A model generated the notes under the pieces. It ran no database searches, was not told the DNA's origin, and saw nothing but the letters and a program-made list of their open reading frames with translations. From NCBI GenBank assembly GCA_963664405.1, contig OY761158.1, positions 4,512,001 to 4,576,000 on the forward strand: a stretch of 64,000 nt of DNA. The letters run 5' to 3'. Position numbers and translations under genes: made by a program. This DNA comes from Thermoanaerobaculia bacterium (lineage in GTDB: Bacteria > Acidobacteriota > Thermoanaerobaculia > Multivoradales > Multivoraceae). Below, piece by piece: positions 715 through 60,504 of this stretch. Position 1 is the first letter of the stretch. Every line of letters starts with the position of its first letter.

Positions 715-1030
715 CAGCAGCCTCCTCCTGTGGTCCTAGGGAAGCCAGCTTGTCGCAGACCGGTGCGAGGACAGAGTCGAGCAGCGAGCTGAGCTCGCCA
801 AGCGCAACGAGCGACGCCATCGGCGGTCCCTCGTCGAAGCTCTCGCACAGCCTCGAGTCCGCCATCCAGGCTGGCAGCTCCGCCAATGTGCCGTCGGGCA
901 GCTCGCAGGTCAAGAGCCGCTGATCGCGTCTACGGCTGTGTTTATGAACCACGAGAACCGAGCCGTACCGCGGATGCCAGCGGTAGCGGATCTCGACCTT
1001 CCTGCCAACGTGAGCACTATGTGACTGGAC
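542..1030 (-). CDS. Y4bD/Y4pK-like protein of the recombinase element (no start codon for the conserved N-terminus inside the element)
   Basis: HSAHVGRKVEIRYRWHPRYG...CELPDGTLAELPAWMAD...C resembles the Y4bD/Y4pK (DUF5372-like) family found beside these recombinases. Confidence 0.6.
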   Translation of the reverse strand, partial: VQSHSAHVGRKVEIRYRWHPRYGSVLVVHKHSRRRDQRLLTCELPDGTLAELPAWMADSRLCESFDEGPPMASLVALGELSSLLDSVLAPVCDKLASLGPQEEAADASNESSTGQRADSVAATEGRDGDADAGSPLRVGGRSDRSADPRGTTGAGDRPSGEG

Positions 1031-1470
1031 CGACCGGCATCGGCAAGTCGTATCTGGCGTGTGCTTTCGTCGAGAGAGCCTGCCGCAAGGGATCATCCAA
1101 CGCCTACTACGTCCGCACACCTCGGCTCCTGCACCAGCTGGCCGTCGGCCGAGGGGACGGCTCCTACAGTCGGCTGATGGCCCGGCTCGCTCGGCTCCAT
1201 CTCCTGGCCATCGACGACTGGCTCCTGGCGCCCCTGAAGCCCCAAGAGCGCCACGATCTACTCGAAGTCATCGAGGATCGCTCAGAAGGCGCCTCGACGC
1301 TGATCGCCTCGCAGCTGCTCGTCGAAGACTGGCACGCGGTGATCGGCGACCCGAACCAGGCCGACGCGATCTGCGATCGCCTACTACACCACGCCCACCG
1401 CATTGATCTGAAAGGGCGCTCACTGCGCGACCCGGAGGTGCCCGACGAACCCAAGGGATCTGCACAATGA
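1021..1470 (+). pseudogene. istB: IS21-family IstB ATPase, 5'-truncated just before Walker A
   Basis: VTGPTGIGKS (Walker A), LLAIDDW (Walker B), STLIASQ, ADAICDRLLHHAHRIDLKGRSLR. The upstream in-frame sequence is not IstB-like. Confidence 0.88.
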
Positions 1471-1514
1471 GCCCGTCGCTGCGCTCCGACTCCGGACCAA
1501 CCGACAGGGGGAAG

Positions 1515-1628
1515 GCCTATGGAAGCTGCCGGGTCTGCGGAAAACCCACCGCGCTGCACCCTGTTTCCCGCAGCCCTTGCAAAACGCCCCCCGCGCCCCC
1601 TCCCGCGTTTCGCACAGCTCCCACAGGC
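1515..1628 (-). ncRNA. Putative three-way-junction structured element downstream of istB (copy 1)
   Basis: On the minus strand: 14-bp P1 gcctgtgggagctg/cagcttccataggc, plus stems tgcgaaacgc/gcgttttgca and ctgcgggaaac/gttttccgcag. Same architecture as 57756-57843. Confidence 0.6.
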
Positions 1629-1697
1629 CAGGCGACGGCTAAATACGGACAAGTCAATAAGCGAAGTAGAAAAACGCCCCGGGCTCTGCCCCCTAAA

Positions 1698-14272: not shown

Positions 14273-14347
14273 GCCCACGTGGCTCAGGGGTAGAGCACTT
14301 CCTTGGTAAGGAAGGGGTCACCGGTTCAAATCCGGTCGTGGGCTCCA
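14273..14347 (+). tRNA. tRNA-Thr(GGT)
   Basis: Acceptor gcccacg/cgtgggc, anticodon arm cttcc-ttggtaa-ggaag, ggttcaaatcc, encoded CCA. Confidence 0.97.
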
Positions 14348-15626: not shown

Positions 15627-15702
15627 AGGCCAGTAGCTCGAATGGTAGAGCGTCGGTCTCCAAAACCGAGGGTTGGGGGTTCGAATCCCTCCTGGCCTGC
15701 CA
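15627..15702 (+). tRNA. tRNA-Trp(CCA)
   Basis: aggccag/ctggcct acceptor, tcggt-ctccaaa-accga anticodon arm, CCA end. Confidence 0.97.
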
Positions 15703-57292: not shown

Positions 57293-57755
57293 TTAGTAAG
57301 AGGGATGTCAGCAGCCGAGGCACTTACAGGCAGGATCTCATCGAATCCGGACCTGGATCTGGCCGATCGACATCGATACGGAGATGCCACTGCCTTCGAA
57401 GAGATTTACGAGCGTTTCGCTCCGATGGTCTACAACCTGTGCCTACGGCTCTGCGGCAACTCCTGCCGCGCGCAGGATCTGAGCCAAGAGATCTTCCTTC
57501 GCGTTTTCAAGGGACTGAAACGCTTTCGGGGCCAATCGTCTCTACGGACCTGGATCTATCGCATCGCGCTGAATCACTGTCGTAGCCGTCTGGGGCGGAA
57601 AAAGTTGCTCCTCGAAGAGTTATTGGTGGCAACGTTTGAAAAGTGAGCCGTTCACCGTTTTGAAAGTGAGCCACTCTCAGCAAGTTTGAGTGTACGGGAT
57701 TTCCTGTCTTTCTCCCTTCTTCAGTGCTTCAGTACTAGATCGTCGTCGTCGCGGG

Positions 57756-57843
57756 TGCGGTAGCTGTGGGAAACCGGTCTGCCGGTTTTCCAAGGCCTGC
57801 GTGGAAACGGTCTGCCGTTTTCCGCAGGCGGTCAGATTCCGCA
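57756..57843 (+). ncRNA. Putative three-way-junction structured element downstream of istB (copy 2)
   Basis: P1 tgcggtagctg/cagattccgca; tgggaaaccgg-tctg-ccggttttcca; gcctgcgtggaaacgg-tctg-ccgttttccgcaggc. Confidence 0.6.
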
Positions 57844-57931
57844 GCCGATTCCGGAGCGACGGCCGCGCGGAGAGGCTCGTAGAGGCCCGATCTCTGCCTG
57901 GTGCAGGCCGTAGGTACCCCTCGAGAGCGGC

Positions 57932-58684
57932 TCATTTGACTTTTCTCCGAGAGCGGGTGCGGTACGAGGAGCCCTTGGTGGTGAGGATGTGGGCATGATG
58001 CGAAAGCCGATCCAGAAGCGCCGTCGTGAGCTTTTCGTCGGCGAAGACCTTGACCCATTCTGAGAACGCCAGATTTGACGTCACGATCGTGGATTTCCTC
58101 TCGTATCGATCCGCGAAGACGTTGAAAAGGAGCTCCCCTCCAGCCCGGTCGAACGGCACAAAGCCCACTTCGTCGCAGACCAAGAGGTCGACTCGTAGAA
58201 GGCGTTGCTGGAGTCGGCGGAGCTCGCGGTGCTCGCGCGCCTCGAGCAGATCGCGGACCAAGTCGGAGACCTTGCAAAAGAGCACACGGTACCGGCGCTT
58301 CGCGGCCTCGATGCCCAGTGCAATACCCAGATGCGTTTTTCCCGTGCCGATCGGGCCGACCAATATGATGTCCTCGCCACGCTCGATGTACTCGCACGAG
58401 GCGAGCTCGTTGAGCTTCGGCTTGGAGACTCCAGACAGGGCGTTCCAATCGATCTGCTCGAGTGTCTTGTGGTCGGGGAAGCGAGCCGACTTGAGCCGGC
58501 GCTGCACGGTTCGGGCTTCTCGGTCCCGGATCTCCGTGTCTAGCAGATCGCGCAGGTAGTCCTCGTAGTCCCACTGGCCGTCCTGAGCCTGCCGGGCTCG
58601 ATCCTCGTAGTCTCGAAGGACGGAGGGAAGCTTCAAGCTCCGCAAGTACTCCTGCATCACCGCCCGACGCGCAGCCCGGCTCAT
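57932..58684 (-). CDS. istB: IS21 helper ATPase IstB
   Basis: [35 protein letters not shown]. Confidence 0.96.
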
Positions 58685-60129
58685 GACACAGACCCCTCTA
58701 GCAGCGCGTCGAAGTCAGCGGCTCGAGCGGATTCGATCTCGTGCTCTTTGAGACCCTCGGGAACCTCGTTTTTCGAGGGCTCAACAGGCCGCTCGAGACT
58801 CAGCAGGTCAAAACGACCGGCACCGAGTGCTTCCTCGAGCGCCACGGCTACATCCTCGGTCCCGTGATCCAACACCGAGCCCAGCAGTTTGGCGAACAGT
58901 CGCGCTGTTTCCAAGGCTCCATAGCGCGAGTCCAGCATCGTCCAGAGCTTGCGGTACGGCTCGCCGAGCTCGGCCAAGAGCTCCGGCGCCACTTGGCGCA
59001 CCGCCTGCGGCTTGCGAGCGAGCTCGTCGAAGTAGTGGGAATAGAGAATCTCTCGTTTCCCCCGACGGACACGGCGAGAGTGAACCTCCTCGCCGCGGCA
59101 CTGAAACGTGATCTCCTCGACTCCGATCAGCGCTGAGATCTGCAGACTCTTCCACCGTGACGGTACCGAGTAGGTCGATCCCTTCACCTGCACCATCGCC
59201 TGGCGGGATACCCGCACCACTTCCGGCGATCTGGGGTCGAACGCGAACCGCGGGAGCTCGAGCATCCCTTTCAGCTCCTCCTCCCACTTCGGCCCCGCCT
59301 TGCTGTGGAACGCCGATTCCACCGATGCGAGAACGGACTCCGCGATCTCGGTCAGAGATCGACCCCGAGGCACTGGCGTCAGATGCGCCAAGCGTAAACC
59401 CTTGCCTCGAGACTCCACGCTCCCCTTGTCGTGACCCTCACCGGGACGCGCGAAGCAAGCCTCGAACAAGTAGTGGCTCACCAACGCTTGGAATCGATCC
59501 GTCAGTACCCGCTCGACGCCCACCCGGCGACGGACGGCTGCTGTCAAATTGTCATAAACACAACGATGGGGAACGCAATCCAGGTACGCGAAGGCTCGAA
59601 CGTGACCCTCCAGAAACGACACCTGGTCCGCGCGATCGTAGAGCCAGACGAACGAACGGCCCGAGTACGGAAAGTGCATCACAAACTTCCACACCCGGTG
59701 TGCGGTGCCGTCTTCTTCGACCGTGACCTCGAAGAAGTCCACCTGCGCTTCCTCCCCAGGGCGGTGGATCAGCGGGATGTAGGCCTCCTGACGCTGACGC
59801 TTCCACTCTCGAAAGTAGCTCCGAACGGTCGTGATCCCGACCTCCAAGCCTTCCGACACCAGCTCGCTATGCAGACGACTCCCCGTGATCCGCTGCTTGC
59901 GAGTCGTCCGTCTCGACCAATCCTCAAGAAGCTCCTCCATACGCGGAGCCACCCGCTCCAGCACCATGCGACGGCGCGGTGCCAACACCACCCGCCGAGG
60001 CTCGCTCATCTCCCTGTACTTGCGAACCGTATTCCGGCTCACTCCCAGCTCAAGGGCCACCGATCGCTCGCTACGACCCTCGATCAGCACCTTGTGCCGG
60101 ATAACATGTACCTGATCCATCTTCAGCAT
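58681..60129 (-). CDS. istA: IS21 transposase IstA
   Basis: [35 protein letters not shown]. Confidence 0.96.
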
Positions 60130-60504
60130 CCTTCCTCCAGTAGCTCAGTCCTTTTTCACAAGACCAAGCTACCGTCTTTTGGCCGAGGGTGGATCACTTT
60201 CTAAGCGTTGGCTGGCTCACTTTTCGGGCGTTGCGTCCAAGTTATCGACCGAGATTGAAGAGGGCGCTCTGCCCGACCCTTCTCGGGGTCCGGAGGAGCG
60301 CCTCATGGCCAGTGACTGCGGTCGACGAGTGGCGGATGCTCTAGTGCAGCTCCCTCGTTGCTTTCGCGAGGCGGTAGTACTGCGAGACATCGAAGAGCTC
60401 TCCTACGACGAGATCGCGACAGTACTCGGAGTCCGCATTGGGACTGTCCGCTCTCGAATCGCACGTGGGCGGGACCGCCTTCGCATTGTCTTGGAGGCTA
60501 GTGC

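Follow-up and report, generated by a model that had tools for sequence, protein, structure and literature searches.

A strand-specific three-way-junction cassette inside the ends of unrelated insertion sequences, mainly of Acidobacteriota

We describe a non-coding cassette that is common to insertion sequences (ISs) of at least eight transposase families, of both the DDE and the DEDD type. Two copies lie in a 64,000-nt stretch of the genome of a Thermoanaerobaculia bacterium (assembly GCA_963664405.1, contig OY761158.1, positions 4,512,001 to 4,576,000), called the window below: copy 2 behind the istB gene of a complete IS21-family element, and copy 1 behind the istB remnant of another. An earlier note on the window, written from its letters alone, had taken the cassette for an IS21-encoded module lying antisense to the transposase genes. 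It is not specific to IS21, and its antisense position is incidental, since in some families it lies upstream of the gene and on the same strand. The constant rule is another one: the cassette sits almost always near one tip of the IS and reads inward, regardless of the orientation of the gene. Comparative analysis shows that it is structured and strand-specific, with stems under selection, and also that, within host lineages, IS families have gained it, lost it or exchanged it among themselves. We tentatively read it as a cis-acting RNA barrier, or a processing module, for transcripts entering across that end.

A three-way junction under selection on one strand

Relatives reveal the order of the unit: a 10-bp outer and a 4-bp inner stem, together a continuous closing stem of ~14 bp (P0/P1), then hairpin 1, an AG linker, hairpin 2 and a GG or GU linker, ~95-160 nt in all, with only ~4 unpaired nucleotides at the junction. 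Both sites lie where the earlier note had placed them, its stem coordinates are right to 1-2 nt, and the three-way junction it had drawn does fold. The closing stem of copy 2 (Table 1) has 2-3 mismatches, and its full length was seen from relatives. Folded on the + strand, antisense to istB, copy 2 (57741-57860) reaches -66.2 kcal/mol (z -5.2), against -53.7 kcal/mol (z -4.6) on the - strand, the sense of istB; copy 1 (1500-1640) reaches -73.8 kcal/mol (z -1.7) on the - strand, antisense to its own istB, and -51.6 kcal/mol (z 0.1) on the + strand. All three 5' arms have a similar word, CUGUGGGAA, the complement of which stands in the 3' arms, so that each arm shows a similar GUGGGAA/UUUCCAC pairing with a conserved G-U wobble. 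The framework pattern that the two copies share occurs twice in the window against 0.00 expected (100 shuffles). As the note had observed, it does so behind clearly different istB genes: their products are 33.6% identical over 137 aa.

The hairpin tips vary freely, another point on which the note was right, in sequence and in length: the smallest are loops of 3-4 nt and the largest inserts of >50 nt, and some are very G-rich. In copy 1, G-rich sequence of 21 and 17 nt forms the two tips. The shortest hairpin-1 caps read GCGNAGC or CCGNAGG with all four N, that is, GNA triloops closed by C-G (loci L041, L044, L052, L059, L066, L094, L118, L123 and others, and position 1881136-1881156 of the window's genome). 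Several independent lineages have tips enlarged by G3-G6 runs of the folded strand, so that the transposase-sense strand is C-rich there (window 1576-1618 on the - strand, L070, L086, L094, L104, L123 and L155); these runs could form G-quadruplexes.

Covariation was studied in two alignments, each with a bias of its own. For the first (A1), full-length elements of 88-130 nt were reduced to 39 by removing those of >93% similarity, after 10 had been dropped by hand as weak or chance matches, and were aligned with the two window copies (41 sequences, MAFFT). RNAalifold predicts 28 pairs from A1, 12 of them with compensatory changes. In the full 34-pair structure 94.0% of the cells pair, a level attained by none of 500 column shuffles (which give 83.2%); sliding the partners lowers it to 41-52%. 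Double changes occur in 14 pairs. The elements of A1 were collected with an exact hairpin-1 pattern, so that the invariance of hairpin 1 is uninformative, and only those with an outer stem paired at 11 or more of 14 positions were kept. Hairpin 2, used in neither selection step, covaries strongly (e.g. CG 19 / GC 7 / AU 7 / UA 5). To escape the bias of the pattern, a covariance model (R1) was built from these 41 relatives, and the second alignment (A2) assembled from 32 of its hits: four loci of the window's genome and 28 of a sample of its phylum, leaving out one unpublished locus and one duplicate. A2 is fitted to the model and so favours the structure, with margins that are large even so: 92.7% of the cells pair, 29 of the 34 pairs have double changes, none of 500 shuffles reaches this level and slid controls stay at 39-53%. 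Here hairpin 1 also covaries (AU 19 / UA 8 / CG 3 / GC 1 at one pair).

The same alignments tell the two strands apart. The note had seen A-C mismatches of the istB-sense strand turn into G-U pairs on the opposite strand, and this holds generally: G-U cells outnumber A-C cells by 173:7 in A1 and by 102:11 in A2, and pairing would drop from 93-94% on the motif strand to 82-84% on its complement. One G-U pair is kept in each arm; in hairpin 1 (n=32) it is G-U in 24 elements, A-U in seven and unpaired in one, and never G-C. The excess of G-U over A-C and the weaker pairing of the complement therefore indicate that selection acts on the single-stranded form of the strand antisense to istB, which, together with the covariation, bears out what the note had proposed for the stems.

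Carriers, position and exchange

The cassette is concentrated in one phylum. An exact scan for the hairpin-1 framework, in one genome per species, gave at least 120 matches in at least 119 loci. Among the 120 matches listed, 101 are in Acidobacteriota, five in Gemmatimonadota, three in Myxococcota, two in Chloroflexota and two in Pseudomonadota, the remaining phyla having single matches each; three of those listed (two Bacteroidota, one Lachnospiraceae) lie in coding sequence and look like chance. In the sample of 151 genomes of the window's phylum, searched with the model at E <=0.001, there are matches in 35 genomes (34 of 150 without one unpublished genome) and in 32 of 106 genera. Up to 26 copies occur per genome. 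Single loci fetched from high-copy genomes (G015, G073, G069, G130, G082) have IS110 or IS3 genes, and we therefore take the high copy numbers as copies of one IS. No match was obtained in a plasmid collection at blastn sensitivity.

Within the 6.78 Mb genome of the window the model finds five sites, four of them in IS21 elements, and no dispersed family. Copy 1 scores 74.6 bits (genome-wide E 9e-14) and copy 2 scores 60.1 bits (E 3e-10), as does the second genomic copy of its IS. A third divergent IS21 element (1881119-1881219; 59.1 bits) has a G-rich stretch in place of the second hairpin. The fifth site (6487252-6487384; 53 bits) is a variant with three nearby open reading frames (ORFs) without Pfam match. 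This last copy (locus L164, 1501-1633, - strand) has a covarying hairpin-1 variant, GGGAAUC/GAUUUCC, and is followed by four direct repeats of a ~17-nt word and a same-strand ORF of 311 aa; the site could represent a mobile element of unrecognised type. With a relaxed hairpin pattern there are five matches in the same genome, all behind IS21 istB genes. The cassette is absent from the 24-copy and 6-copy IS21 families of this genome, in which, by eye, an apparent extra ORF comes right after istB (e.g. C1:6533444 and 1094450).

Carrier genes were identified by clustering the neighbouring ORFs and scanning them against Pfam (30 cluster representatives, 40/61 further candidates, 44/48 beside model hits), and were also placed by tblastn with representative transposases. 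For 78 of the 120 listed matches a transposase gene starts within 1000 nt downstream, on the motif-strand side; for three it is upstream only. Another 13 are followed by 1200 nt or more of sequence in which the queries used found no transposase; from this group, L056 and L150 have Pfam helix-turn-helix domains of IS481/IS630 type, and L063 has a tyrosine recombinase. The rest are too near a contig end to judge (23) or are the chance matches (3). Again among listed matches, IS110 carriers have the cassette upstream of the gene and on its strand in 19 cases, and after the stop codon on the opposite strand in four. The corresponding counts are 0 and 14 for IS256, 7 (istA side) and 12 (istB side) for IS21, 2 and 7 for IS3, 0 and 6 for unclassified rve genes, 1 and 4 for IS481, 1 and 0 for ISL3, and 0 and 1 for IS66. 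Model matches add a DDE_Tnp_1 (IS4/IS5-type) element and further IS3, IS21, IS110, IS481-like and ISL3 cases; for a few, the neighbours are AcrB-like, TraG-like or CarboxypepD_reg genes, with no transposase close by.

When copies of one IS are compared (IS110, IS256, IS3 and both IS21 types), the shared sequence begins 70-125 nt upstream of the motif, so the cassette is internal to the IS. Searches of the fetched loci by pattern and model found no second cassette within one IS, and the sole locus with two matches (L152) consists of two separate IS21 copies. Two arrangements deserve mention here. In an IS3 lineage present at 13-16 copies per genome, the frame of the transposase continues through the complement of the whole cassette, its last ~40 codons lying opposite the structure (L167, 424-1623, + strand; L170, 1473-2720, - strand). 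In an IS110 element (L134, 5684-6060) the cassette comes after the left tip and before a region in which words of that tip recur (ACCTGTACC at ~5693, GTACAGGTACC at ~6018). This region looks like the donor-binding part of the bridge RNA, which the cassette would then precede on the same strand.

Comparison of elements shows that the cassette comes and goes. Among 24 IS21 loci of the phylum sample (28 fetched, minus four second copies), only three have a strong model match directly behind istB, on the opposite strand; two more have a weak match at that place, and one has a weak match inside the gene. Three sister IS21 elements share the C-terminus of istB and the subterminal and terminal words, with a spacer between stop codon and end word of ~45 nt in L196, ~140 nt in L217 and ~245 nt in L195, and only L195 has the cassette. 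In a tree of the 41 elements, weakly resolved in places and based on short sequences, well-supported clades mix IS families within one host class: IS110 with IS21, including window copy 2 (SH-aLRT 96); IS256 with IS3, IS21 and rve (96); IS21 with rve (98); and IS21 with IS3 (99). Sequence variants track the host lineage and not the IS family. Between IS110 and IS21 carriers, both from Thermoanaerobaculia, the similarity starts ~22 nt before the outer stem and ends right after it, which indicates that the moving unit is a short leader plus the junction, ~110 nt. Many relatives are preceded, like copy 2 (Table 1), by a repetitive leader (GTAG..., GTCGTC... or GATGATG), and the 22 nt upstream contain GTAG or CGTC in 16 of 36 elements, compared with 18.7% of control windows.

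The two host elements of the window are in different states (Table 1). The limits of the first, element C, are set by its second genomic copy (6506831-6509446; 99.96% identity over 2616 bp). Its ends are TG...CA, it is flanked by a 6-bp direct repeat, AGTTAT, and it has the features of IS21: istA followed by istB, overlapping at 58681-58684, inverted-repeat ends, subterminal words and a short target duplication. Copy 2 starts ~128 nt from its istB-side tip and is hence internal. The insertion splits an ORF with a Sigma70_r2 domain (57305-57646 and 60240 onward) that looks like an ECF-type sigma factor. Of the second element, D, we recognise an istB remnant, degenerate at its N-terminus and covering profile positions 97-231 of 238. 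A word of 33-34 nt at 1659-1692, ~28 nt past copy 1, has 25 occurrences in the genome at 97-100% identity, the others lying ~500 nt upstream of istA in the 24-copy IS21 family; either element D has been cut by that family, or both have a common end word. The sole Rfam matches of the window are two tRNA genes (14273-14344 and 15627-15699).

Table 1. Coordinates of the two cassettes and their host elements (positions in the window)
Feature	Position	Strand	Remarks
Copy 2 of the cassette	57751-57848	+	Antisense to istB; genome C1:4569751-4569848
Copy 2, leader (CGT)n	57741-57750	+	Triplet-periodic; directly 5' of closing stem
Copy 2, P0/P1 5' arm	~57754-57767	+	Fold and model
Copy 2, hairpin 1	~57768-57793	+	UCUG loop; fold and model
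Copy 2, hairpin 2	~57795-57830	+	UCUG loop; fold and model
Copy 2, P1/P0 3' arm	~57834-57847	+	Fold and model
Copy 1 of the cassette	1513-1630	-	Antisense to a different istB; genome C1:4513513-4513630
Element C, complete IS21-family element	57624-60239	-	2616 bp; carries copy 2; two genome copies
Element C, right (istB-side) end	57624-57700		Terminal inverted repeat, repeated subterminal words; identity starts at 57624
Element C, istB	57932-58684	-	Pfam IstB_IS21, E 1.3e-77
Element C, istA	58681-60129	-	482-aa ORF; Pfam Mu-transpos_C_2; homologues have rve domains
Element D (IS21 family), istB remnant	886-1470	+	Pfam IstB_IS21, E 8.9e-40

Possible functions of the cassette

The carriers use different chemistries (DDE: rve, Mutator-type, ISL3, IS66 and DDE_Tnp_1; DEDD: IS110), which makes a role in strand transfer unlikely and leads us to favour one in expression or insulation. 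Taken together, the fixed position, the inward orientation, the strand-specific pairing, the arm word and the tracking of the host suggest a cis-element read by a host machine. As a barrier, the cassette would act as RNA and in cis on transcripts that cross the adjacent IS end, having started in flanking host genes or at a promoter at the end or junction. Its very stable Y-fold would make these transcripts pause or end, or have them cleaved, probably with the help of a host factor that recognises the recurring arm word, and the interior of the IS would thereby be uncoupled from outside transcription. A cassette at the left end would block read-through activation of the transposase or of the bridge RNA, and one at the right end would block antisense read-in. 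We count in favour of this possibility that 36 of 38 upstream leaders have stop codons in at least one frame, and seven of them in all three. There is also a known case of the kind, the left-end terminator of IS200, which 'protects against impinging transcription' (PMC4513863).

Several points weigh against the barrier. Each IS has the cassette at one end only, though an insulator would suit both. The conserved arm words and G-U (G-T) pairs would fit folded single-stranded DNA (ssDNA) equally well, and several caps read GCGNAGC, the consensus of exceptionally stable DNA mini-hairpins. A canonical intrinsic terminator was rejected, because only six of 39 non-redundant elements have a T-run or T-rich tail after the closing stem; the U-run inside hairpin 1 also covaries away in some relatives. 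A Rho-loading leader was rejected as well, its composition being inconsistent (mean A 0.18, C 0.26, G 0.28, T 0.28). The biases of A1 and A2, described above, count on the same side.

A consensus scan of 57400-58200 returned no terminators and no sigma-70-like promoters. When three metatranscriptome contig sets and one DNA set were compared with 57400-60400, contigs from RNA libraries covered only short conserved patches, among them a piece of hairpin 1 (34-35 nt) that was matched by contigs from other organisms, 90-219 nt long. In one run (X1), over 57703-57803, the summed contig depth is ~254 over hairpin 1 against ~16-30 in neighbouring bins, and hence many other organisms in that sample carry the conserved hairpin.

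The main rival explanation, which we consider unlikely, is that the cassette works as folded ssDNA: the inward strand would fold when unwound or displaced and recruit primase, RNA polymerase, a primosome or a structure-specific protein. The occasion would be the replication of a transposition intermediate or of incoming DNA, much as for the single-strand origins (sso) and single-strand initiation sites (ssi) of rolling-circle plasmids and integrative and conjugative elements (ICEs). The strict strand specificity and orientation, the cassette-like exchange, the tracking of host lineages, the three stem elements and the GCGNAGC caps with all four N, stable as DNA, all agree with this. So does the inward strand itself, which, from the copy-out-paste-in model of transposition, would be the one displaced by a fork entering that end. 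The sso are described as orientation-specific, active as single strands, dependent on structure and, in pBAA1 and ICEBs1, made of three stem-loops (PMC4595007). However, the carriers include IS110, with its bridge-RNA-guided strand exchange, and a DDE_Tnp_1 (IS4/IS5-type) element, and no known replicative intermediate is common to all carrier families; the loops also comprise UUCG, UCCG and CUUG, types typical of RNA. The same two carriers led us to reject the idea that only copy-out-paste-in families have the cassette. An origin of transfer was rejected too, by reasoning: DNA transferred from a nick beside the cassette would lose the adjacent IS tip. One weak model match (L188) adjoins a TraG-like gene.

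That the cassette is, or is part of, a small regulatory RNA made from its own promoter, which would control the transposase or host genes by antisense pairing or by titration of a protein, is distinctly unlikely. It would explain why the right-end copies are antisense to the 3' end or 3' untranslated region of the transposase mRNA, and even to the last ~40 codons in the IS3 lineage described above. Within one genome, different IS families have near-identical copies that stand in opposite senses to their genes, and their transcripts could pair. The metatranscriptome contigs with hairpin 1 homologues are a further, weak, point for it, as such libraries can contain DNA. Yet there is no promoter-like site in 57400-58200, and about a third of the placed copies are sense and upstream, which leaves no single antisense target. 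Known antisense RNAs of ISs overlap the 5' end and ribosome-binding site of the mRNA, and the cassette does not; moreover, nearly all of its nucleotides are paired, with no seed region. For the lack of a promoter-like site and for its position, at the 3' end of the gene or sense and upstream, an antisense regulator of the RNA-OUT or art200 type was rejected.

We regard as improbable that the cassette is a selfish or hitch-hiking palindrome, akin to repetitive extragenic palindromes (REPs), their BIME clusters or MITEs, that was inserted in IS ends or is a preferred target and has no function for the IS. GTAG and CGTC are the tags of the two REP super-families (PMC3733652), and their enrichment upstream of the cassette speaks for such an origin, as do 12 matches to the Y1_Tnp domain above the cut-off in the genome and the 13 listed matches beside which no transposase was found. 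Against it, the cassette lies inside the IS and not at its junction, no listed Y1_Tnp match is within 90 kb of a copy in the window's genome, the copies of this genome (four of five in IS21) form no dispersed family, and the high copy numbers elsewhere are of one IS. A constant inward orientation is hard to square with random insertion, and REPs are single stem-loops of 8-9 bp and 20-40 bp overall. As a REP or BIME proper the cassette was rejected, given its branched fold of 95-160 nt, a tag that is not adjacent to the stem, and five copies in 6.78 Mb.

It is very improbable that the other strand is the functional one, its complement serving as an outward terminator or a 3' stabiliser of the transposase mRNA. 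The stop codon of IS3, IS256 and IS481 transposases does abut the structure (relative starts +88 to +104), the complement of copy 2 still folds, and a C-rich tract immediately precedes it on the sense strand in some lineages. On that strand, though, the conserved G-U pairs become C-A and pairing weakens, and the complement would point out of the IS, away from any gene, in IS110 and ISL3 carriers and in some of the IS21 and IS3 ones. Barely plausible is a duplex DNA array, in which a host nucleoid or regulatory protein would bind a CTGTGGGAA-like word that is present three times directly and three times inverted: the same word of 8-9 nt does recur in all three 5' arms, with its complement in the 3' arms, but positions outside it covary (GC 13 / CG 12, and GC 14 / CG 8 / AU 3 / UA 3, in hairpin 2), and the G-U asymmetry would be meaningless in duplex DNA. 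As for the guide-like role about which the note had speculated, with variable tips specifying target or donor DNA like a bridge RNA or crRNA, the chances are close to nil: a conserved GUUUU...GAAAC framework does flank variable inserts, and IS110, whose members use guide RNAs, often carries the cassette, but many copies, including both hairpins of copy 2, end in loops of 3-4 nt, the loops of copy 1 match the genome only at chance level, the tip-repeating words of L134 lie downstream of the cassette, in the presumed place of the bridge RNA, and the other carrier families are not known to be RNA-guided.

Two further candidates were rejected. A coding reading had been prompted by the triplet leader and by an open frame in some copies, and it is broken by the lengths of the hairpin-1 inserts (7, 9, 10, 11, 12, 13, 16, 20, 21, 22 nt and more). 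A self-cleaving ribozyme would be at odds with the ~4 unpaired nucleotides of the junction, and no ribozyme family matched.

Known systems and implications

The cassette matches no known RNA family: Rfam 15 gives no family at gathering score at the element, in the window or in 23 carrier loci, and a permissive search of 57600-58000 returns only chance-level hits on the opposite strand (best E 2.7-9.6). A covarying cassette that crosses IS families at their ends appears undescribed in the literature searched (titles and abstracts). As a motif of Rfam type found mainly in Acidobacteriota, it resembles the Acido-Lenti-1 and Acido-1 motifs.

Other systems share one side of it. IS10 RNA-OUT, IS200 art200, the IS110 bridge RNA, IS605 omega/reRNA and ISPpu9 Asr9/Ssr9 are, like the cassette, non-coding, IS-borne and strand-specific. 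Some of these RNAs also occupy the same non-coding ends. Each of them is tied to one transposase family and to a defined mRNA or DNA target; the cassette, instead, crosses families and is almost fully paired. The left-end hairpins of IS200 (a terminator at nt 12-34 and a stem-loop in the 5' untranslated region) come close in that they are non-coding, lie inside one end and act on incoming transcripts (PMC4513863). Even so, the IS200 terminator is a simple, bidirectional, rho-independent hairpin of a single IS family, whereas the cassette is a strand-specific three-way junction, seldom followed by a U-tract (6 of 39), in many families.

The likeness to sso (ssoA, ssoT, ssoU, and sso1 of ICEBs1) and to G4-type ssi is of another kind. 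These are orientation-specific, defined by structure, multi-stem-loop, dependent on host factors, non-essential and exchangeable on unrelated mobile elements (PMC4595007). For the cassette, the alignments show a multi-stem fold of one strand. What sets the two apart is that sso and ssi serve rolling-circle or conjugative ssDNA, while the IS families that carry the cassette are not known to need priming of a complementary strand. REPs and BIMEs, too, are GC-rich palindromes, sometimes preceded by GTAG or CGTC, that may act as RNA or as ssDNA; they are extragenic single stem-loops, scattered through a genome as tens to hundreds of copies, and frequently go with RAYT genes (PMC3733652). The cassette is three times larger, branched, interior to ISs and, in this genome, away from Y1 transposase genes.

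These comparisons lead to a broader possibility, which we consider less likely than not: the cassette could be an exchangeable 'accessory non-coding gene' of unrelated ISs, a host-adapted Y-shaped element that would dock RNA polymerase, a nuclease or a primase/primosome at one end. It might do so as RNA or as ssDNA, and it might have spread between IS families by recombination, as sso have between plasmids.

Whatever its mode of action, the structure would be a well-supported addition to catalogues of RNA and DNA motifs, and it may offer synthetic biology a compact, portable and structured module for poorly studied soil bacteria. In IS110 it lies beside the bridge-RNA region, and may matter for the expression of those recombinase systems. 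In the usual account, an insertion sequence is a transposase gene flanked by two inverted repeats, any RNA or structure being specific to the family. If the broader possibility above is true, ISs would have a new layer, a cis-module common to many families that does not depend on the transposase and fits these elements to a host phylum. The pattern of sharing points to a common selective need in these hosts, probably to a host factor that reads the structure, and the identity of this factor would explain how ISs insulate themselves from, or plug into, the transcription or replication of their hosts.

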